From: Desulfatiglandales bacterium
GTDB taxonomy: Bacteria; Desulfobacterota; DSM-4660; Desulfatiglandales; Desulfatiglandaceae
Direction: 5' to 3'
NCBI GenBank assembly: GCA_963662465.1
Contig: OY759599.1
Location: 7,392,001-7,456,000, forward strand
DNA: 64,000 nt
Shown here: in pieces, positions 31,544-41,884 of the stretch
Position numbering within the stretch: the first letter of the stretch is position 1
Layout: every line of letters begins with the position of its first letter
Made by a program: the position numbers and the translations under genes
Notes under the pieces: generated by a model
What the model saw: only the letters and a program-made list of their open reading frames with translations
What the model was told of the DNA's origin: nothing
The model's database searches: none

Positions 31544-32217
31544 ATGAAAAAACGGTTAGAGTTTACAGAGCTTTCAATTGTAATCGTTGCGGAAAACCAC
31601 AATCCGACGATTCTGAATCCGGATTTCCTGAAGTTTAATGGCATAGTTCCGAAAGAATGGGTTGTTAGCAAGCCGCCGTTGTGCGCCTATCCCGTTTCCC
31701 AGGTGGAATATCAGAATGGTATGCGAATTACAGCGGAGCTTAACAAACTGATATTTTTTACACCGGAATTCGTCAATAATCATTTTGACATGAATATATC
31801 CGATGTCGCCAAAAGGTATGTCGAACGCTCCACGCTCATGTGAATTACAAAGCCGTTGGCATAAATCCAAGAGGGCATCTCAAATTTGATGACAGGGAAG
31901 CACTAACCCGTTATTTTGTGAGCAATCTGTTAAATAAGGGGGCCTGGGCCGACTTCTGCGGCGGAGTACGTTCAGTATCCATAAAGCTCAGGTACGAATT
32001 GGACTCCGCAATCTATAACATAGGTTTAGATCAGGCTTCTTTGAGATCGGACAAATCGCGAGAGGATGATGTTCTGAGTATTTCAGGGAATTTCCATCAT
32101 GGTATCGCCTCAACCCATGTTGTGAAATCATATCAAAAAGTATCTGAAATCATAGATAATATAGGCTATGACTTGGATCAATGCCTGAGCTTTTGCAAGC
32201 TTTTGCCGGAGGCTTAG
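31544..32217 (+). pseudogene. Split/frameshifted conserved hypothetical (TIGR04255-like), ORFs 31544-31843 and 31840-32217
   Basis: SIVIVAENHNPTILNPDFLK and AVGINPRG are motifs I recognise from single ~200-aa proteins. Adding one A near 31825 gives continuous YVETLHAHVNYKAVGINPRG. Confidence 0.6.
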
Positions 32218-32226
32218 GAGGAAACC

Positions 32227-32919
32227 ATGGCACGATTGTCGGAAAACACGGAAAGTTATGAGGATAGATTCGCCGAATTCGCCCGTCTTCGCACCATAGA
32301 AGACTGGAAACAGAATTTGTGGCCCTTGACCACTCAGGGGGGGAGCTACGCTTACGGCATCGGTTACATTAGCAACCAAACCTCAGAATTTGATACAGCA
32401 TATGATGATATCACCCGGGCGAGCGCTTCGGATGCTTTACTTGACACGGATCGTGCCGACGATGACTGCTTTTTTCCAAACAAGCAAATTTCAGCCAAGA
32501 GCGAATCCAGGCCTTCAATTGTTGAGGAGTTCGCGCCCTATTTCAGAAAAAAAACCGTAGAGAACGAACTGCGAGGATATCTGCACCTGGAAGAAGGTTG
32601 GAACGGTGCAAACAGTGTCGCGCCACCCGAGCTTGCCGTTGAAAACGCCGTTTTATTTCTTTCCCGTTTTCCTTATGACCTAACGCAACCCACCCCAATG
32701 GTTGCGGCGGATGGTGAGGTTGGCCTCTACTGGCGATATCAAGGTGCATATGTTGAATTGGAGTTTACAGGTGATGGCATCATGTTCGGTTATGGTTGCG
32801 ACCTCCAAGGCAACGAAGCATTCATTGATGATGTGTCGGTGGATTCACACGAAGAAATGGAAGAGGCAATCGGCATTGTATCTAAGATAGTGGCTGAATT
32901 TCCCTTGGACGATGACTAA
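32227..32919 (+). CDS. Acidic hypothetical protein, candidate antitoxin
   Basis: GGAGG RBS; disordered-looking N-half. C-terminal LxxLEEGWNG..SVAP....VENA..FL...P....DGEVGLYW......VELEF motif, seen in small accessory cassettes. Confidence 0.7.
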   Translation: MARLSENTESYEDRFAEFARLRTIEDWKQNLWPLTTQGGSYAYGIGYISNQTSEFDTAYDDITRASASDALLDTDRADDDCFFPNKQISAKSESRPSIVEEFAPYFRKKTVENELRGYLHLEEGWNGANSVAPPELAVENAVLFLSRFPYDLTQPTPMVAADGEVGLYWRYQGAYVELEFTGDGIMFGYGCDLQGNEAFIDDVSVDSHEEMEEAIGIVSKIVAEFPLDDD

Positions 32920-33412
32920 GTCTGTTGATGATGAACAGGTATCTCAAAGTGAGTTTTCGTGCGGTTTTGTCGAAGATGGTGAGGACATTATCCGAATCAT
33001 TGTTCATCCCCATCACATCGAGACAGGGGATATTCAACTAAAAACAGCCGCCTTTCAGCGCATTGAATTGACGGAGAGGGGCGCTTCCATTGAACGTAAG
33101 GCCCTTACCGATCCCATAAAACTCACTCATAGTTCCCAAAAACTTCTCACCAAGGAAGACCGATCCATAGCCGGATATGCACTGGTGGAGTGTTCATCCA
33201 TAAGGGCTGTCGTTGATGAAACGGGAGAACGGATTTTTTGTGTGTTGGATACGGCATTGAAATGCAATCCCGCCCATGGTGATATCTTTTTCGCCAAGGA
33301 ACTTCCCAAATCAAAGCAAGTCAAATATAGAAATGATTTAATAAGCGCCTTCAATAGAAGGCTAAATTCCCACGGTTCATTATACGGGGTGCAAGACATA
33401 TTTGCGCCCTAG
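32912..33412 (+). CDS. Hypothetical protein, candidate ART/RES-fold toxin
   Basis: 8-bp overlap with the previous gene. Pattern E.IIR...AF...GASIER...IR...NPAHGDI gives an Arg/Ser/His arrangement. Confidence 0.6.
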   Translation: MTKSVDDEQVSQSEFSCGFVEDGEDIIRIIVHPHHIETGDIQLKTAAFQRIELTERGASIERKALTDPIKLTHSSQKLLTKEDRSIAGYALVECSSIRAVVDETGERIFCVLDTALKCNPAHGDIFFAKELPKSKQVKYRNDLISAFNRRLNSHGSLYGVQDIFAP

Positions 33413-33429
33413 ACCGTTACCCTTAACGA

Positions 33430-33819
33430 ATGGGAAAAGCTCATAACCGACGCATCCGGAAAACCCAAGCATTTCTGGAGCAAACCATAGACCCGGCTAC
33501 CGGGGAACCCTATCTTAAACCGGTCAAGGTAAGGCTATTTGGCGAAGACCCGGAAGATGCCGTTCCTTTGCCGCCGTATCTCAATGACGCCTATGATTTT
33601 GAGGGGGAGGCCATCGGGATCTATGCGGGCGGTGGAAACTCAGGGATTATACGAAATGGAGAATTCAAGCGGACGTCACGGGATGAAATAAAGCAGAAGG
33701 TGGGAAGAAGCGAACTCCGTTTGCTCCTTGGCACGGACGCGGCCAGTGAAGGGTTGAATCTGCAGCGGTTAGGGACTCTCATCAATTTTGACCTTCCTTT
33801 TTTGGTGTCGTGGCATTAA
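33430..33819 (+). pseudogene. Fragment of a SNF2-like helicase (PLD-helicase type)
   Basis: Helicase C-terminal motif LLLGTDAASEGLNLQRLGTLINFDLP, cut before the expected WNP...EQR.GR motif VI. No N-terminal ATPase lobe. Confidence 0.75.
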
Positions 33820-35473: not shown

Positions 35474-36607
35474 TTAATGATTTTCAGGTGTCTTGGGGAA
35501 GAAGTGCTCCTCGGCGCCTTCTTCTTCAAAAAGTTCCGGATAGAGTTTTTTGGCGCAATCAGGGCAGATGCCGTGGCTGAATTTGGCATCAGAGTGCTTT
35601 CCGATGTAGGCCTCAACTTGATTCCAGTACCCGCGGTCGTCACGGATTTTTTTGCAGGATGCACATATGGGGATCAAACCGCTTAAGGTCTTGACTTTGG
35701 ATAAGGCTTCCTGAAGTTCCGCGATCAGCCTTTCCCGCTCCGCTGCCGCCAGGCGTTTGGCGGTGATATCCTGTCCTGAGCTGAGGACGCCGGTAATGTT
35801 TCCGGATGCATCCGTAAGAATGGTATTGTGCCAGGCGATGATTTTTTCTTTGCCGTCATGGGCAACAACCGGGTTTTCATGGTATTCTTCCGGATCGATG
35901 TTTCCGGCGATCAGGTTTTCAAAGGCTTTGATGGTATCAGGGCGAATATTGTCGGGAACGAAGGTTTCAAACCAGTTTCGGCCGATGATTTCATTTTCTT
36001 CGTAACCCATGACTTCGCAGCCCCTTTGATTGATGAGGGTTAACAGACCCTTCCGGTCAAAGGCGATCAACATGACGCTTGCCGTGTCCAGGTATTTTTG
36101 GGCTCTGTCCCTTTCGATTTTGATGCTTTGGTTTGCCCGCTCCAGTTTCTGAAAATTTCGAGCGTTGGCAATCACCAGGGCGAGTACCGGAGCGGTGGAC
36201 AGGGCGAGATTCTGGTAATGGCGTTTGTGGTTCGCGAACAGGAGCCCATCCAATTCCAGTACGCCAAGGGTCCGGCCGGAATGTTGAATGGCCAGTGCAA
36301 ACCCTTTTTCCAAATCGGTCCAACCGGCATTTCCGGGGAAACCGTGCAGTCGTTTTAATCGCTCATTACTGACGGAAAGGGAAGGGGGGCTGGTTTTGAT
36401 TTTTTCAGGCTTTCCGTCCCTTATGGGAAGGTAGATCAGACTCCGGGGTGCAAAAAGCATGGAGAAGAGTTCCATGATTTTTTGGATGGCAGCCTCTTCA
36501 TCCGTGATGCCGGTCAGTTGCCCCAGCATATCGAAGACCATGGCATACTCGGCCAGTCGCTGGTTGTCGTTGGGCAATGGGGTTTGAGGGAAAGATTTAT
36601 CGGCCAT
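35474..36607 (-). CDS. GAF + PAS/PAC sensory protein with C-terminal Cys/His module
   Basis: GAF-like N-terminus (LGVLELDG...LALVIANAR), PAS (GYEENEIIGRNWF...IAWHN...SSGQDIT), tail LIPICASCKKIRDD...FSHGICPDC. Confidence 0.85.
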   Translation of the reverse strand: MADKSFPQTPLPNDNQRLAEYAMVFDMLGQLTGITDEEAAIQKIMELFSMLFAPRSLIYLPIRDGKPEKIKTSPPSLSVSNERLKRLHGFPGNAGWTDLEKGFALAIQHSGRTLGVLELDGLLFANHKRHYQNLALSTAPVLALVIANARNFQKLERANQSIKIERDRAQKYLDTASVMLIAFDRKGLLTLINQRGCEVMGYEENEIIGRNWFETFVPDNIRPDTIKAFENLIAGNIDPEEYHENPVVAHDGKEKIIAWHNTILTDASGNITGVLSSGQDITAKRLAAAERERLIAELQEALSKVKTLSGLIPICASCKKIRDDRGYWNQVEAYIGKHSDAKFSHGICPDCAKKLYPELFEEEGAEEHFFPKTPENH

Positions 36608-36613
36608 AAGGGC

Positions 36614-37663
36614 TTAAACCCAATCGAGCGGATACCGGCCCCATCGGCGAACCGCTTCGGATATGGCCATCAGAACTTCATGGGGAATCTGCCAGGGGAT
36701 TTCCCCATGGTTGTCTGAGAGGATGAAGCCGCCTCCGGGTCCCGCTTTTTTTATGGCCTCTTTCACGACTGTTTCCGCCTGCTCCGGGGTCCACCGGCGC
36801 ATCTCGATGCCGTTCAGGTTTCCCAGCACCGTCAGGTTGTTCTTTTGGCAGGCGGCTTTGATTTCACCCAGATCCTCAAGCACGCTGATACCCACAATGG
36901 CGGTGCCGGTTTGGGCCACATGGTCGATGATGGGCAGACAGCGCTCCGAGGCAAAATGGGTGGCCGTGGGGCCGTTTATTTGTGCGAGGGTTTTTTTGGC
37001 CACCTGAAATCCGGTCTCTAAATACATATTTGGGGGCGTGATACTGGAAGAAGAGACGGGATCGAAATAGCAGATGGCCGTTGCTCCAGCGCTCAATTGC
37101 GCGTTGGCCCAATCAACGCAGAAAGCTTCATTGATTTTCATCAGGTGTTCAAAAAGATCGCGCCTTTCGTACATGAGTTCGATGTAGCGGTCAAACCCCA
37201 TCTGCATTACGGGCAGTGAGAAGGGACTCATGACCACCCCGATAATGGGGATTTGGTCGCCGGATGTCGTCTTCAGCAGTTCAATGGTTTTTAATACTTG
37301 CAGCAAACATGGGGATTCATAGACGGCAGGGGGGGCAAGGTGCATTATTTCTTCCGGATTACGAATGAAAGGCGTTCCTGAATTGGGGGGACCATCTTCA
37401 AAAAAGATGACTTCACCCCCAAAGGCCTCCACTTCAATGGGGGCATAAAAGAAAGGATACAAGCAATCATGACCGTATTTTTTTTGCATGCGAAGCTGAC
37501 CTTCAACGACATTTTCCGCTTTAGAGAAATATCCTTTGATGGAAAGCCCCAGCTCTTTTGCCCCGTGCAGGGTGAGCAGCAGGAAAAAGGGAACCTGATC
37601 CGGTTCTTTGTGGGAAAGGGCGGTGAGGACTCGGTCCATGGAGGAAAGGGGTTGGTGGTTCAT
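36614..37663 (-). CDS. Uroporphyrinogen decarboxylase / MtaA-CmuA family protein
   Basis: EPDQVP, VEAFGG, SPFSL, AQLSAGA....FDP, VLGNL, GGGFILS: TIM-barrel pattern of methylcobamide methyltransferases. Confidence 0.85.
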   Translation of the reverse strand: MNHQPLSSMDRVLTALSHKEPDQVPFFLLLTLHGAKELGLSIKGYFSKAENVVEGQLRMQKKYGHDCLYPFFYAPIEVEAFGGEVIFFEDGPPNSGTPFIRNPEEIMHLAPPAVYESPCLLQVLKTIELLKTTSGDQIPIIGVVMSPFSLPVMQMGFDRYIELMYERRDLFEHLMKINEAFCVDWANAQLSAGATAICYFDPVSSSSITPPNMYLETGFQVAKKTLAQINGPTATHFASERCLPIIDHVAQTGTAIVGISVLEDLGEIKAACQKNNLTVLGNLNGIEMRRWTPEQAETVVKEAIKKAGPGGGFILSDNHGEIPWQIPHEVLMAISEAVRRWGRYPLDWV

Positions 37664-38331
37664 GAGGGAACTCCCAAAATATTTTCAATAAGGGTAACGG
37701 CATCGGATGCGTCCCGGCACATGGCATCGGCGCCCACTTCTTTCCAAAGGGCGTCGTCCATGCGAAAGGGTGCGCCGCCCACCACAATTTTTATCGGTGG
37801 AACCGCCCCCGTCAGTTTTTCCTTTACTGTTTTGACCTGCAAGGCGGAGGGGAGCATCAGGGCCGAAATGAACAGCAATTCGATGTTATCCCGAAGCGTT
37901 TGGTCAACCAGTTCATCCACATCCATTCGGCCATAATCTTTGAGGTCGTATCCGGATGCCCTCAGGGTTGCCAGGACAATCCGTTTGCCCAGCAGGTGAT
38001 AGTCTTGAAGCACGGCGATGGCCATTTTCGGTTGATGTTTTCGCTCGGGTGCTTCCGCGGGAAGGATTTTTTCCACCAGTTCTTCGCATATGCGGCCCGA
38101 CATGTATACCTGCGACAGGGCGATTCGGCCGGCATTCCAACCCTCTCCGATACGTTCCAGGGTGGGGACAACCATGTGTTCTACCAGTTCCATTGGTGAC
38201 CAGATGTGGCTTGCTTCCATAAACAGATCGCCGGCTCCCAGTCGATCAAGGGAAAGCAGGGCCGCTTCGAACCGGGTTGCCATGTCTTCTGTTTGGGGCA
38301 TGGTTTGGATCCTGATGATTGGGGTTGGCAT
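37660..38331 (-). CDS. Cobalamin (corrinoid)-binding protein
   Basis: B12 cap (LERIGEGW...LSQVYM) plus Rossmann domain with DYHLLGK (DxHxxG), SALM and VVGGAPF. Start could be 38301. Confidence 0.9.
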   Translation of the reverse strand: MPTPIIRIQTMPQTEDMATRFEAALLSLDRLGAGDLFMEASHIWSPMELVEHMVVPTLERIGEGWNAGRIALSQVYMSGRICEELVEKILPAEAPERKHQPKMAIAVLQDYHLLGKRIVLATLRASGYDLKDYGRMDVDELVDQTLRDNIELLFISALMLPSALQVKTVKEKLTGAVPPIKIVVGGAPFRMDDALWKEVGADAMCRDASDAVTLIENILGVPS

Positions 38332-38387
38332 AATCTATTATTATACAGGAATGATAATTTACGGCAACGGAAAAAGCCGATTTTCGA

Positions 38388-40301
38388 TTATTGAAGCGGC
38401 GGTTTGGGATCAGCTTTCCCGATGTCTTTCAGATGTAGCAGCAGGATGCGTCGCACTTCCTCGATGGTCAGGGGATGGCCCTGACAGGAGTGACCGCTTT
38501 TCACAATGAATTCGGATGCCACATAGTCCACATGGGCGCTCTGATATGCCACCACCCCGTCATCCCCTTGGGTCGGGTCTCCATTGCCCTGGACCGCGAT
38601 AATGGAATGGCCTTTGACTCCCGGGGCCAGGGGGATGTTCGCCAGGGCCAGCAGGGATGGATTCTTGGGGCTCATGCTGTCAATGCTGGTGCGGTTTTCC
38701 GTAAAACGCCATTCCTCCGGCACTTCGGCGGCGGCCAGGGCTTTGCCCAGAATTACGGTTTGCTTGACGATATCCACGGGCAGGGACACCAGCCTCCGGA
38801 CCAGGTTGCGAACCCAGTCCCCGGCCAGAAAACTCCCCCTGTGGGGCGTGGAAATGAACACCACCCGGCGCACAAAGGGCAAGGGTGCAAAGACCGCTCT
38901 TTCACGGATCAGTCGGCGCTGTTCGGGCGTCAGATCCAGCTCCGCCAATCCTTTTCCGGTAACGCTTCTGACAATCCTGTCCCCTGTGTCAACGGCGGTC
39001 AGCTTGGTTAAGAGCCCTCCCTGGCTGTGCCCGATGATCACCATATCCTGAAGGGCCTTGTTCCGGCCTTCGGGGTCCAGCCTGGTCACCGTTTGCGTCA
39101 GGGTCTCACGAAACTGATGGGCTGAGAGGCCGATGGTTTTGCCGCTGTCGTAAAAATAAAACCAGAACTGGCAGCGCCAGCGGAGGATCGGGTCCGCCAT
39201 CAGGGTATTGGCCATTTCCGCCCACCAGACCGGGCTGCTGGCGGTTCCGTGAACAAATATGACGGGGATTTGAGCGGGGTTGTAGGGTTTGATAAAGTAG
39301 AGGCCGGTGGGAATGGGGCTCTTGCCCATGAAAAATGCCGCGATGTCCAGGTCCCAGAGGACCGGCTGGTTGAGGTTGTAGGCCAGTTGGGCGCTGAGAT
39401 CGCTTTCAAGGGGGACGAATTTTCCGTCAATTTCCACGCGGGTTCGATCAAAGGGGGCATAAAGTTCCAGTTTCCCTTGCAGCGAACCCTTTTTAAGCGA
39501 TTGAATATTACCCTCAATTCTCATGAGCAGGGTTCCGGGCGAGCTGCGTTTGATGGGCAGTTTGGCAGTTTTTTTGCCTACGGCGATAAAGGCCGTCCCC
39601 AGTCCCGCATCCCGGTTTCGGCGGCTGAGACCATAAATATCCAGCCGGTCCGCGGCAACGACTTTTTCGAAACGATCAGGTGCTACCGGAAAATTTCGGG
39701 CATCAAGGGTCAAATCGATACTTCCGAAGGGCAATTGCCGGGCGCCTGCGTCAAATACCAGGTTCCCTTTGCTATCGGTGATTGCCTCGGCAAGGGCGAT
39801 GTTGTAGATATCGCATGCCAGTCGATAACGCCGATCAAAGGGATTTGCCGGTTTGTTCCGGGTTTCATCGAACAGGTAAAAATAGGCATAGATGGCCGCA
39901 CTAAGGTAATATGCCCTGTTTTCAGGAAGCGGGGTGTCGTCCAGATCTCTCAAAGTGTGTTTTGCTGTAAAATAATTCAGTTCCGCCAGGGCGAACAGGA
40001 GATCCCGCCGATTGTCCTCATTGATTTTCCGGTGAAGTTCATTAAGGCACTTCAGGGGATTTTCCCTGAAAAATTCGCCCATGTTGTAGCGTTGAAGCAC
40101 ATTTTTCGATGTGGCGCTGTATTGTGCGTTCAGCAGTGCATTGGTATTGATCTGTTCATAGGCCTTTCGAAAGCCCACATCTTTTGTACCGATGGCCGCA
40201 CCGCAACTCATTAGAACCAGCCATAAAAGAAGTGCCGAACATAATTTCAAACCGCCCGGCCATATTCGGTTGGTTTCATGGGAATTGAATTTTGTGCGCA
40301 T
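38388..40301 (-). CDS. Alpha/beta-fold lipase/esterase, probable lipoprotein
   Basis: LMSC lipobox-like, FVHGTASS, GHSQGG nucleophile elbow, STPHRGS, DGVV, H. Confidence 0.85.
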   Translation of the reverse strand: MRTKFNSHETNRIWPGGLKLCSALLLWLVLMSCGAAIGTKDVGFRKAYEQINTNALLNAQYSATSKNVLQRYNMGEFFRENPLKCLNELHRKINEDNRRDLLFALAELNYFTAKHTLRDLDDTPLPENRAYYLSAAIYAYFYLFDETRNKPANPFDRRYRLACDIYNIALAEAITDSKGNLVFDAGARQLPFGSIDLTLDARNFPVAPDRFEKVVAADRLDIYGLSRRNRDAGLGTAFIAVGKKTAKLPIKRSSPGTLLMRIEGNIQSLKKGSLQGKLELYAPFDRTRVEIDGKFVPLESDLSAQLAYNLNQPVLWDLDIAAFFMGKSPIPTGLYFIKPYNPAQIPVIFVHGTASSPVWWAEMANTLMADPILRWRCQFWFYFYDSGKTIGLSAHQFRETLTQTVTRLDPEGRNKALQDMVIIGHSQGGLLTKLTAVDTGDRIVRSVTGKGLAELDLTPEQRRLIRERAVFAPLPFVRRVVFISTPHRGSFLAGDWVRNLVRRLVSLPVDIVKQTVILGKALAAAEVPEEWRFTENRTSIDSMSPKNPSLLALANIPLAPGVKGHSIIAVQGNGDPTQGDDGVVAYQSAHVDYVASEFIVKSGHSCQGHPLTIEEVRRILLLHLKDIGKADPKPPLQ

Positions 40302-40525: not shown

Positions 40526-41884
40526 ATGGAAATTGAACCAAAATTAAATAAACATTATGTACCTTCCGGGCAATACCGGATCGACGGTAAAAAACCGGAA
40601 ATTCTGGAAGCAATCCTGGGAACCTGCGTGGCGGTCTCCCTTTGCGATCGCCATGCCCATGTGGGCGGATTGATTCATTTGCTTCTGGCTGAGCCGCCCG
40701 ACATTCATGATACCTGGGAGCCCTTAATATATGCCAGGACGGGTCTCCCACTATTTATCCAGTCCCTGTGCGATGCCGGTGCCCGGATGGAAAGACTTGA
40801 AGCCCATATGGCCGGAGGGGCGCTTATGGGGCCTTTGTCTTCCACGGATCTAGCGCTTGATATCGGCGGCCATACGGTTGAGGTTGTTGAACAGATATTG
40901 AAAAGGGAAGGGATCAGCGTCATTAGAGGGGAAACAGGCGGTTTTTTTTCTTGCCGTTTGAACCTTAACCTGTGGTCGTTGGAAAGTCACATCGAACCCT
41001 TGGATACTCCGGGGAATGGGTTTCTGGAAAAACCCATTGAACGACCGACAAAAAGGGAGATTGAGGCGGCCATTAAACGGGTCCGTCCCATTCCTCAAAT
41101 CGTTCTGAAAATTATTCGGATGATACGAGATGTCAATGTCAGCATGAAGGACATTTCAGAAGAGTTGCGGAAAGACCAGGTTTTAAGCGCTAAGGTCCTC
41201 AGGTTATGCAATTCGGCGTTTCTCGGCAGTGGGCGGGAAATTGACGCCGTGGACAGGGCATTGGTTTTTTTGGGAGAAAAGCAGTTTTTACAGTTGATCA
41301 TCTCTTCTTCCGTGGAAGATTTCTTCCCGACCACCGAGAAGGGGTATTCTCTGTCCAAGGGGGGTATTTATAAACATGCCCTGGGAACCGCACTGGTTTC
41401 CGAGATGTTGGCAGACTTCGTTGGCGGGGTTCCCTCGGATATCGCTTATACGGCGGGTCTACTTCACGACATCGGAAAGGTTGTGCTGGATCAAAACATG
41501 GCATCCGCATACCCGTTTTTTTATCGACGCATCCGGGAGGACGGCGTGAACCTGATCGACGTGGAACGAGAAGAATTCGGCGTTGATCATGCCCGGCTGG
41601 GCGCCCGGTTGGGAAAAGAGTGGTCTCTGCCGGATAATCTGATCGATGTGATCCGATACCACCACAGCCCGGAGGCGGCCACCGTTGACCCCCGTTTATG
41701 TTACGTGGTGTATCTGGCCGATTTGATCATGTCGCAATTTCTGGCCGGGCAGGAATTGGAAAGACTGAACGCCAATGAATTGGGAACGCGGTTGGGGGCA
41801 ATGGGCATCAAGCCTGAACAACTCCCAGAAATTATTGACGGCATTCCCAGTCGGATTTTTCGTGATGCATCGCTGCATTTCTGA
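40526..41884 (+). CDS. CheD-HDOD fusion protein
   Basis: CheD-like LGTCVAV...GGLIHLLL...AGGA...IG, followed by HDOD (DQVLSAKVLRLCNSA, AGLLHDIGK, DHA, IRYHH). Confidence 0.88.
   Translation: MEIEPKLNKHYVPSGQYRIDGKKPEILEAILGTCVAVSLCDRHAHVGGLIHLLLAEPPDIHDTWEPLIYARTGLPLFIQSLCDAGARMERLEAHMAGGALMGPLSSTDLALDIGGHTVEVVEQILKREGISVIRGETGGFFSCRLNLNLWSLESHIEPLDTPGNGFLEKPIERPTKREIEAAIKRVRPIPQIVLKIIRMIRDVNVSMKDISEELRKDQVLSAKVLRLCNSAFLGSGREIDAVDRALVFLGEKQFLQLIISSSVEDFFPTTEKGYSLSKGGIYKHALGTALVSEMLADFVGGVPSDIAYTAGLLHDIGKVVLDQNMASAYPFFYRRIREDGVNLIDVEREEFGVDHARLGARLGKEWSLPDNLIDVIRYHHSPEAATVDPRLCYVVYLADLIMSQFLAGQELERLNANELGTRLGAMGIKPEQLPEIIDGIPSRIFRDASLHF

Follow-up and report, generated by a model that had tools for sequence, protein, structure and literature searches.

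What are two genes that look as if they belong to methyl-transfer metabolism doing directly in front of a gene for a signal transducer? The question is raised by three genes in the 64,000-nucleotide stretch of Desulfatiglandales DNA analysed here (the window), which specify a corrinoid protein (P0001), a UroD-like protein (P0002) and a sensor (P0003). To our knowledge corrinoid protein/methyltransferase pairs are metabolic, and in signalling B12 serves either to capture light, as it does in CarH and related proteins, or as the ligand of riboswitches. Comparison of sequences between genomes shows the three genes to be one copy of a cassette which is widespread and conserved. We think it probable that in this cassette the corrinoid protein and its cysteine-less partner of the UroD/MtaA fold form the sensory input of a GAF transducer. 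No paper describing this cassette or its sensing mode was found in the literature searched.

The locus and its three products

The stop codon of the corrinoid-protein gene and the start codon of the UroD-like gene share a 4-bp TGA/ATG overlap (ATGA), seen as CCCTCATGAACC, and the UroD-like stop is separated from the sensor start by 6 bp (TAA-GCCCTT-ATG). A previous sequence-only reading of this DNA had described three co-oriented, tightly coupled genes, which the overlap and the short gap bear out, and had picked out DYHLLG in the corrinoid protein and THFAS and SDNHGE in the UroD-like protein, all of which are present (Table 1). Since its homologues are approximately 210–213 aa long, the true start of P0001 is probably Met11 at 38301. 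The promoter-like site upstream is a consensus match only, in a region which holds 5 such sites against 3.9 expected from shuffling.

Table 1. Positions of the features in the window
Feature	Position	Strand	Remarks
Corrinoid protein P0001	37660..38331	-	B12-binding_2 cap and B12-binding Rossmann domain; 223 aa (longest ORF)
DYHLLG motif, P0001 residues 110-115	37987..38004	-	
UroD/MtaA-fold protein P0002, without zinc cysteines	36614..37663	-	349 aa; PF01208
THFAS motif, P0002 residues 235-239	36947..36961	-	
SDNHGE motif, P0002 residues 316-321	36701..36718	-	
Signal transducer P0003	35474..36607	-	377 aa; GAF-type domain, PAS, Cys4-His output domain (likely)
Cassette-specific GAF-fold domain, P0003 residues 1-168	36104..36607	-	Alignment A1, AlphaFold2, Foldseek
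PAS domain, P0003 residues 173-285	35753..36091	-	PF08448, TIGR00229
Cys4-His output domain (likely), P0003 residues 297-360	35528..35719	-	Alignment A4; C315, C318, H345, C348, C351
Promoter-like TTGCCG-16-TATAAT	38340..38367	-	10/12 consensus match, within the 56-bp gap 5' of the corrinoid gene

P0001 was identified through its B12-binding_2 [PF02607, 8.7e-11] and B12-binding [PF02310, 1.1e-14] domains. All 75 members of its family retain D110, H112 and G115 of DxHxxG, S156 and L158, G185 and G186, and also G62, W65, Q74 and Y76; the SxL and GG elements alongside DxHxxG are those of the MtaC, MtbC and MttC proteins. P0001 lies below every NCBIfam cut-off, including that of the MtaC/MtbC/MttC-type model (TIGR02370; 78.3 bits vs 215.3). 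Its GEGW sequence corresponds to the GxxW element of the light-responsive cobalamin-binding signature, which is given as GxxW, EH, GxxH and GxxxP (PMC11796333). P0001 reaches 41.9 bits with the CarH model NF052513, the cut-off of which is 400. A conserved EH following the Trp is absent from the family, its presumed place, going by the expected spacing, being taken by Q74-V-Y76 with the Q and Y in 75/75. On these two counts P0001 is probably not a light sensor of the CarH type.

P0002 matches URO-D [PF01208, 1e-54] over residues 8–341, which places it in the UroD-type TIM-barrel fold. We take the zinc ligands of MtaA-type proteins to be His-x-Cys ... Cys, and the residues of these motifs are visible in the alignment with MtaA (4ay7), where THFAS falls on LHICG with the His kept and the Cys replaced by Ala, and SDNHGE falls on APGCGI with the Cys replaced by His. 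Both zinc cysteines are absent from all 81 family members: 80 have Ala and one has Ser at position 238, and the distal Cys has given way to His319 in every one. The His of the first motif is retained in 76 of the 81, and position 263 is invariably acidic. The earlier description of the protein as lacking its zinc ligands is thus correct for the cysteines and goes too far for the site as a whole, there being two His and an acidic residue at or beside the old ligand positions.

The scores of P0002 lie under the cut-offs for the MT2 methyltransferases (TIGR01463, 100.2 vs 235.4; NF040654 for MtaA, 84.5 vs 400; NF041608 for MtbA, 62.7 vs 600) and under that for HemE (TIGR01464, 53.6 bits vs 302.95). 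The profile of the family is about equally close to MtaA [4ay7, 2e-17] and to UroD [4zr8, 3e-16]. HemE was rejected as an identity for P0002: the catalytic Asp of UroD 4zr8, which belongs to its “SD” motif and corresponds to Asp86 of the human enzyme, aligns to Ala74 in the profile alignment, and this position is Ala in 73/81 with Asp never among the residues listed. Between phyla the UroD-like proteins share 52–91% identity, and 36 columns of their alignment are invariant, a degree of conservation which one would expect of a protein having several partners.

The N-domain of P0003 aligns with 55 other sequences at 27–85% identity (alignment A1, 56 sequences) and gives no match to any Pfam GAF family even at E≤10. 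Its AlphaFold2 model (pLDDT 88.2) has a GAF fold, the top Foldseek matches being the GAF domains of KdpD (4y2f; TM 0.59/0.68, E 1.8e-4) and NlhI (4g3k); at E≤0.001 the matches (TM 0.51–0.68) consist of GAF domains (KdpD, NlhI, PDE5A, Lcd1) and one Nostoc response regulator. The PAS domain is recognized by PF08448 [2.3e-10] and TIGR00229 [3e-17]. The designation “GAF-PAS sensor” holds for the PAS and, by the model, for the GAF, on which the Pfam models are silent, and overlooks the C-terminal Cys4-His domain. By tblastn the cassette GAF is single-copy in the 8.16-Mb genome. None of its Cys or His positions is conserved in alignment A1. The helices are its best conserved part (0.69, residues 125–150) and residues 64–100 its least conserved (0.33), a pattern which favours a docking or transmitting module over a small-molecule pocket.

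The Cys4-His domain has neither a Pfam match (E≤10) nor a structural neighbour that we could find; its C, C, H, C and C are invariant in 30/30 sequences (alignment A4). There are 13 copies of it in the genome, every one C-terminal, behind REC, PAS, GAF-PAS, MASE3 or VUPS, and 24,185 cluster representatives match it at E≤0.001. Because it is placed where outputs sit, including behind REC in four proteins, this is likely to be an unnamed and very common output domain resembling a zinc ribbon.

Recurrence of the three genes in other genomes

The loci of the best 80 of 419 matches to the UroD-like protein were surveyed, and these span about a dozen phyla plus the Methanosarcinaceae. A corrinoid gene is directly upstream of the UroD-like gene in 79 of these 80, and a gene with the N-domain of P0003 is next downstream in 65. 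Nine of the remaining 15 loci end less than 1 kb past the UroD-like gene; this leaves 71 evaluable loci, and in 69 of them a signalling gene is directly downstream. The other two (L008 and L009) have no sensor after the gene pair, which counts against a signalling role. In three archaeal loci a kinase follows the UroD-like gene, in one case with the cassette GAF (hhalign 98.5%, E 2.7e-15), and in one of the remaining 15 a DUF1638 ORF does so. All-against-all clustering of 667 neighbour ORFs gave three families present in more than 7 loci, the corrinoid, UroD-like and sensor families, and those clusters in 4–7 loci that were checked proved to be antisense shadows.

The window displays the same order, ending in a transducer with the cassette-specific GAF. 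This domain is co-inherited with the corrinoid and UroD-like genes ahead of interchangeable outputs: the 65 sensors carry a kinase (36), the Cys4 domain (15), GGDEF (11, one with EAL), HD-GYP (one) or none of these (two). DUF1638 is found in 38 of the same 65 sensors (from the best 80 of 419 matches). P0003 has no match to it (PF07796), its GAF beginning at residue 1. As the sister locus L074 has the architecture DUF1638-GAF-Cys4, the domain was probably lost here; and among the 15 loci with a Cys4-ending sensor, PAS occurs elsewhere only in L003, the closest relative of the window. The window's sensor is probably, then, a derived variant which has lost DUF1638 and gained PAS, and in which the GAF must achieve coupling by itself. 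It lacks the sole domain having an independent link to corrinoid proteins, an observation which counts against signalling.

Natural fusions occur as well. P0137 (766 aa) is composed of URO-D, the cassette GAF (hhalign 99.7%, E 1.9e-25), HisKA and HATPase_c and matches P0002 at 56% identity over 99% of its length. P0138 (747 aa, 54% identical) possesses URO-D, HisKA and HATPase_c by Pfam, with a GAF discernible by eye only, and the fusion P0139 (937 aa) has a weak DUF1638 match in addition. By their predicted domains these UroD-like/GAF/histidine-kinase fusions tie the enzyme-like protein to the transducer, and they offer a single-polypeptide handle for biochemistry.

The sequence-only reading had proposed that methyl-transfer parts were repurposed for signalling, a suggestion which the synteny, the varied outputs and the fusions favour. 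It had asked whether one GAF stands ahead of differing outputs, and kinase, GGDEF, GGDEF-EAL, HD-GYP and Cys4 are what the neighbourhoods contain; had the homologues lain mostly in catabolic methyltransferase operons the idea would have failed, and in the loci of the best 80 of 419 matches they do not, the three cassette families being the ones that recur. Its remark that no substrate methyltransferase or reactivase lies nearby agrees with the window, which is devoid of RamA-type, MttB and pterin-binding matches.

What the cassette may sense

The cassette likely reads a B12 cofactor bound to protein and converts its chemical state into a signal for the cell. The corrinoid protein would hold a cobamide His-on through DYHLLG, and the UroD-like protein would dock on it and move a methyl group between the cobalt and a non-thiol small molecule or, alternatively, merely read the cofactor. 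The GAF would sit on this pair, its long conserved C-terminal helix (YLN...NAR) relaying the state; in the window's copy the message would pass via PAS to the zinc-ribbon-like Cys4-His domain, which may also serve REC response regulators of this genome. We would rank the sensed quantity as methyl-donor supply (Co-CH3 vs Co(I)), followed by cobalt redox state, cobamide supply and light.

In its full form the proposal is a tentative one, which we hold at somewhat less than even: corrinoid methyl-transfer chemistry would itself be the sensory input. A B12 protein would act with a dedicated methyltransferase of the UroD fold that does not depend on thiols, the two loading or unloading the cobalt methyl according to methyl-donor supply or cobalt redox, and the GAF would read this state and drive kinases, c-di-GMP enzymes or Cys4 domains. 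Signal transduction coupled to an enzyme in this manner would form a new class, which hundreds of bacterial species and methanogenic archaea would possess.

A rather unlikely alternative is that the corrinoid and UroD-like genes form a corrinoid methyltransferase pair of the usual metabolic kind, with a non-thiol substrate, the third gene being a co-transcribed regulator or simply co-regulated. The corrinoid protein does have the full methyl-carrier motif set (DxHxxG, SxL, GGA), and the UroD-like protein, with its invariant polar residues D66, Y160, S205, K269, H319 and E321, resembles an active enzyme, so that its role could be metabolic, which counts against the signalling reading. So does the presence elsewhere in the genome of RamA-like (two full copies) and MttB-family proteins, which may belong to a dispersed methyl-transfer pathway; the genome's RamA-type, MttB and pterin-binding matches are all at 2.9–5.9 Mb vs 7.39–7.46 Mb for the window, and MtaB is unmatched anywhere in the genome. 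There is precedent too, which likewise counts against signalling: one preprint has the Methanosarcina kinases MsmS, RdmS and MA4377 regulating the corrinoid methyltransferase (mts) fusion genes which they adjoin, instead of receiving a signal from them (bioRxiv 10.1101/2021.03.04.434021). A corrinoid enzyme and methyltransferase pair of G. sulfurreducens (GSU2386/2387), possibly related to the cassette, was proposed for the acetyl-CoA pathway (PMC7894505). Against this, neither an MT1, a second methyltransferase or a RamA-type activase gene nor a conserved DNA-binding response regulator recurs near the pair in the best 80 of 419 loci. The sensor's input domain is confined to the cassette and occurs once in the genome, some of the outputs are c-di-GMP enzymes, whose action is not that of a regulator of one operon, and the enzyme-GAF-kinase fusions are hard to square with an enzyme plus a transcriptional regulator.

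It is unlikely, a shade more so, that the cassette responds to the redox state of cobalt, and so to oxygen, oxidants or the supply of low-potential electrons, instead of to a methyl donor, Co(I) going to Co(II) and shifting the corrinoid protein from its UroD-like partner to the sensor. The Asp-His-Ser ligand triad, which work on MetH has given a role in redox-switching corrinoid proteins, is invariant in the family. The genome's only free DUF1638 gene adjoins genes for thioredoxin and a pyridine-nucleotide disulfide oxidoreductase. DUF1638, the usual first domain of the sensors, is required alongside a split methionine synthase, genetics linking it there to the function of the corrinoid protein (PMC5764234), and co-occurs with RamA-type reductive activases (PMC5764234; PMC12478193). 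However, an enzyme so like a methyltransferase and so highly conserved would be superfluous in a pure redox sensor, DUF1638 is missing from the sensor of the window, and the hosts are strict anaerobes and likely aerobes alike.

That the corrinoid protein reports on the supply of cobamide, or detects light as CarH or photoglobin-B12 modules do, with the UroD-like protein an accessory cofactor loader, is very unlikely: B12-binding domains are established or predicted sensors of light or ligands and are connected to kinases, GGDEF and GAF (PMC11796333, PMC8717448), the GxxW element is invariant, and two further free corrinoid-protein genes of this genome lie within two-component operons, one beside a probable photoglobin, but the EH element is missing, the CarH score is far too low, many hosts are dark-sediment anaerobes or methanogens, and both ideas leave the invariant enzyme-like active site unexplained.

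Were the signalling proposal true, bacteria and archaea would have a new input principle, a methyl-transfer pair placed ahead of kinases and c-di-GMP enzymes. DUF1638 would thereby acquire a function, as would a large and highly conserved branch of the UroD superfamily which lacks the cysteines, and the finding would point to a metabolite or redox cue monitored by anaerobes, denitrifiers and methanogens alike. The window's copy would single out the GAF, rather than DUF1638, as the minimal coupling element and links the cassette to the abundant, unnamed domain that is likely its output.

Comparison with known systems

Like MtaC/MtaA, MtbC/MtbA and MtsA/MtsB, the cassette sets a DxHxxG corrinoid protein beside a partner of the UroD fold (PF01208), the best PDB match of which is MtaA. 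Unlike these systems it lacks both zinc cysteines (81/81), scores far under the MtaA/CmuA cut-offs, is equally close to UroD and has no nearby MT1 or activase; a transducer is next in 69/71 evaluable loci and is sometimes fused.

MsmS, RdmS and MA4377 are kinases that sense redox through haem. As the preprint describes them, these GAF/PAS sensors of Methanosarcina acetivorans resemble the cassette in lying near UroD-type corrinoid methyltransferases, by the mtsD/F/H fusions, and differ from it in controlling transcription of catabolic enzymes via Msr regulators. In the cassette, by contrast, the GAF conserves neither Cys nor His; it is inherited together with the pair, precedes outputs which are interchangeable and may form one polypeptide with the enzyme-like protein.

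CarH and the photocobilin/photoglobin-B12 modules also bring B12-binding_2 and B12-binding together with kinase, GGDEF or GAF partners, whereas the corrinoid protein here is encoded by a separate gene, is paired with an enzyme-like protein of the UroD fold and is without the EH element. Most relatives' sensors (38/65) open with DUF1638 and so recall PGA1_c13340 of Phaeobacter inhibens, which belongs to a split methionine synthase; unlike it, the cassette DUF1638 is fused to GAF and outputs instead of standing alone by methionine synthase parts, and the window's sensor is without it.

An accessory-protein sensor with a corrinoid and an enzyme-like partner was not described in the literature searched. 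H-NOX is a separate cofactor-binding protein encoded beside the kinase or cyclase whose activity it sets, with interchangeable outputs. The cassette shares with it both the separate cofactor protein and the interchangeable outputs; its cofactor, by contrast, would be a corrinoid provided with a dedicated enzyme-like partner.

The trio and its neighbourhood

An ATGA overlap joins the genes of the corrinoid protein (P0001) and the UroD-like protein (P0002), and the gene of the GAF-PAS-Cys4 sensor (P0003) starts 6 bp past the stop of the second, so that the tight coupling proposed in the sequence-only reading is borne out. The motifs which it had named, DYHLLG in the first product and THFAS and SDNHGE in the second, also lie in the places where it had put them. 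Because the homologues of P0001 measure about 210–213 aa, Met11 (38301) is its likelier start.

Features of the cassette and copies of the Cys4 domain in the same genome
Feature	Position	Strand	Remarks
Corrinoid-protein gene (P0001)	37660–38331	-	ORF, 223 aa
UroD-like gene (P0002)	36614–37663	-	ORF, 349 aa; full-length URO-D domain, 1e-54 (Pfam)
Sensor gene (P0003)	35474–36607	-	ORF, 377 aa; PAS at residues 173–285 (Pfam)
Promoter-like TTGCCG-16-TATAAT	56-bp gap 5' of corrinoid gene	-	sequence match
Cys4 domain of P0003	35528–35719	-	64 residues long, following PAS; C, C, H, C, C invariant (alignment)
Other Cys4 copies, same genome	L084:5105–5293; L085:3461–3649; L085:7731–7919; L087–L095		

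The alpha/beta-hydrolase gene lying upstream (38388–40301) was considered as a member of the cassette and ruled out, being kept in that position in only 3 of 80 loci; the N-terminus of its product reads like a lipoprotein signal (LMSC). The SBP_3-SLT gene downstream is unrelated, as judged by Pfam. Elsewhere in the window CheD, HDOD and HD domains are joined in one 452-aa protein (40526–41884, +), a combination of chemoreceptor deamidase and HD-type signalling domain that looks unusual. A row of small Pfam-less ORFs (31840–33819, +), the last a 129-aa piece whose sole match is to the C-terminal portion of a helicase domain, may be left over from a larger gene or mobile element.

Scanning a single genome for each species gave 419 relatives of P0002, of which the best 80 loci were surveyed. 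According to the record titles the loci belong to Thermodesulfobacteriota, Chloroflexota, Pseudomonadota (several classes), Bacteroidota, Verrucomicrobiota, Planctomycetota, Spirochaetota, Synergistota, Actinomycetota, Bacillota, Aminicenantes and Methanosarcinaceae. Within these best 80 of 419 loci the corrinoid gene lies directly 5' of the UroD-like gene in 79, and a gene with the GAF-type domain of the window's sensor is present in 65. The genes are thus inherited together while the output is interchangeable: 36 of the 65 sensors end in a kinase (several of them hybrid), 15 in Cys4, 11 in GGDEF (one with EAL) and one in HD-GYP, no output domain being detected in the remaining two. A third gene of constant GAF type and varying output had been envisaged from the sequence alone, and the survey agrees.

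The GAF gene starts no more than about 80 nt past the end of the UroD-like gene in 61 of the 65 loci. The gap is about 350 nt in L033 and L057, that of L057 being an artefact of how starts were trimmed. For L018 and L056, the best GAF match is farther off and the gene directly adjoining is a signalling gene too. L056 (3573–9233, Anaerolineales) carries an extended cassette, in which a DUF1638-kinase comes after the UroD-like gene, and then a second corrinoid protein together with a second GAF-kinase. The 15 loci lacking a GAF call of the window's type include nine which stop less than 1 kb past the UroD-like gene, three with a kinase, one with a DUF1638 ORF after the UroD-like gene (L081) and two with no sensor downstream of it (L008 and L009). 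In the three with a kinase, all Methanosarcinaceae, a histidine kinase follows the UroD-like gene, and that of L066 bears the cassette GAF at residues 108–262.

The UroD-like and corrinoid proteins

Compared with solved structures P0002 is closest to MtaA (4ay7, 5e-13), followed by several UroDs. A profile of 81 members of its family scores nearly equally against MtaA (2e-17) and UroD (3e-16), from which we conclude that the family is a superfamily branch of its own and not a close relative of MtaA. P0002 falls below the curated NCBIfam cut-offs for MtaA/CmuA, MtaA, MtbA and HemE.

In the alignment with MtaA (4ay7) THFAS stands opposite LHICG and DNHG opposite PGCG, as the proposed loss of zinc ligands would have it. 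That proposal stands for the two cysteines, which are gone from all 81 members (the first position being Ala in 80 and Ser in one, the distal position His throughout); it does not stand for the remainder of the site, since the THFAS histidine (H236) is retained in 76 of the 81 and an acidic residue at 263 is universal. Glu321, D66, Y160, S205 and K269 are likewise invariant. The UroD Asp which we take to be the catalytic residue aligns with Ala74 of P0002 (profile alignment). Judged by these residues, P0002 is no zinc-thiolate MT2 and no decarboxylase, yet it has the look of a functional enzyme. A putative non-thiolate metal site (His/Glu/His) may replace the zinc-thiolate one, a suggestion weakened by the exchange of H236 for Leu, Gly or Lys in the other five members.

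Directly after THFAS, codon 240 (36944–36946) specifies Glu in the window, L003, L004 and L005 and Asp in L074, while 75 of the 81 members have Gly; this acidic position next to the old zinc motif is specific to a clade.

Three long relatives of P0002 (747–937 aa), 52–56% identical to it over 99% of its length, all combine URO-D with HisKA and HATPase_c. In P0137 the GAF profile aligns with the segment between the URO-D and kinase domains (hhalign 99.7%, E 1.9e-25), in P0138 the cassette GAF motifs can be seen by eye, and P0139 has a weak DUF1638 match in addition. Such fusions are the strongest in silico sign that the UroD-like protein and the GAF transducer may act as one physical unit.

The DxHxxG, Ser-x-Leu and GG motifs, the set of a methyl-carrier corrinoid protein, are invariant in all 75 members of the P0001 family. 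The genome has two further free corrinoid genes. One (219 aa) lies inside a signalling operon (G000:C1:8062909–8065326, L084:2909–5323) that lacks a UroD-like gene and has the order PAS-kinase-REC hybrid, corrinoid gene, 384-aa kinase (its N-terminal 150 aa without assignment) and REC-Cys4 response regulator. The other (225 aa) is followed by a 171-aa ORF, the two (G000:C1:4583567–4584734, L085:9570–10734, minus strand) being flanked by kinases. The ORF has no Pfam match, and its Atlas neighbours include a cluster with PF00502 (Phycobilisome) in 11% of members. The two are probably the photoglobin-B12 light-sensor pair predicted in PMC8717448.

The sensor, its Cys4 domain and its descent

The N-terminal 168 residues of P0003 match nothing in Pfam or NCBIfam. 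A word-indexed homologue search with them gave 13 matches only, for which reason the GAF-domain alignment was built from the surveyed loci. The fold predicted from the resulting 56 homologous domains (pLDDT 88) matched the named GAF domains of KdpD, NlhI, PDE5A and Lcd1 in Foldseek at E<=0.001, the sole match not so named being an entry titled response regulator. Since the invariant and near-invariant residues lie mainly in helices, residues 64–100 vary most and no Cys or His is conserved among the 56 sequences, the domain would be a docking or transmitting module and not a small-molecule pocket. E37, Y131, N148 and R150 of P0003 are among the conserved residues of the helices.

The Cys4 domain (about 60 residues, PIC-x2-CKKIRDD...W...E-Y...FSH-x-IC-x2-C) occurs 13 times in the genome. 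As every copy is C-terminal, behind REC (four), PAS (three), GAF-PAS (one, and the window's own), MASE3 (one), VUPS (one) or an unassigned region (two), it occupies the position of an output domain. A library of 1.84 billion contains 24,185 cluster representatives that its profile matches at E<=0.001. It has no Pfam or NCBIfam model, only unnamed clusters in the ESM Atlas, and a literature text search found none of the strings CKKIRD, CKKIRDD and KKIRDD. A Foldseek search of the PDB had no match at E<=0.001, and the best Z of a wide VIA-align search was 2.6, results from which neither novelty of the fold nor any function follows. The domain appears to be an output module, very common and unnamed, of one- and two-component systems.

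DUF1638, which precedes the GAF in 38 of the 65 sensors (E<=1e-5), is absent from that of the window. The portions available of PMC5764234 and PMC12478193 link it genetically to a separate corrinoid protein of split methionine synthase and describe co-occurrence with RamA-like proteins, which fits a domain handling corrinoid proteins. The only DUF1638 gene of this genome (G000:C1:6214977–6215636, L086:3980–4636, minus strand; 219 aa) is stand-alone, with thioredoxin and a pyridine-nucleotide disulfide oxidoreductase on one side and a SLAC1/TehA-type channel on the other; it does not adjoin methionine-synthase parts.

A tree of the 81 UroD-like proteins, made by a quick method, places that of the window as sister to L003 (support 99) within a five-member clade (support 95) completed by L004 and L005 (sensors GAF-Cys4) and L074 (DUF1638-GAF-Cys4). 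Given these clade mates, DUF1638 was probably lost in the window's lineage and PAS probably inserted in the sensors of the window and L003. Since P0002 was found in one of 121 sampled genomes of the order, the window's own, the cassette is patchily distributed.

The proposed input and known systems

We consider it reasonably probable that the corrinoid and UroD-like proteins form the input of the transducer. Binding and methyl transfer, like the nature of the signal and the direction in which it travels, are inferred: the UroD-like enzyme, with a non-thiol methyl donor, or else redox, would set the state of the bound cobamide, the GAF domain would read this state, and the signal would pass on through PAS to the Cys4 output.

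It is unlikely that the two proteins are instead a metabolic corrinoid pair with a co-transcribed regulator, for which Methanosarcina kinases and mts genes would offer a parallel, as far as the available text on these goes. Clustering of all 667 neighbour ORFs of the best 80 of 419 loci showed no fourth recurrent family, hence neither an MT1 nor a RamA-type activase near the pair. Their absence nearby had been remarked from the sequence, and indeed the RamA-like, MttB and pterin-binding genes of the genome are megabases away; MtaB has no match in it. One MttB-family match (G000:C1:2942532–2943239), with a second such gene 4 kb off, has one in-frame TAG, which may be a pyrrolysine codon or mark a broken gene.

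Slightly less likely still is a redox sensor, redox being one of the two ways in which the cobamide state might be set. Sensing of light or of the supply of B12 seems improbable: the relevant literature on cobalamin or corrinoid proteins with GAF or diguanylate cyclase does concern light sensors in the parts available (PMC11796333, PMC8717448), but the P0001 family differs from the light-sensing B12 signature with GxxW and EH elements given in the accessible text of PMC11796333 in having GxxW without EH.

Returning to the corrinoid and UroD-like proteins as input, no description of the cassette was found in the main texts of the literature searched, the listed DUF1638 papers included. In the part of PMC9768040 available, the mec dichloromethane cassette comprises MT1, MT2, a regulator and a kinase with PocR input, an arrangement different from that of the window's trio.
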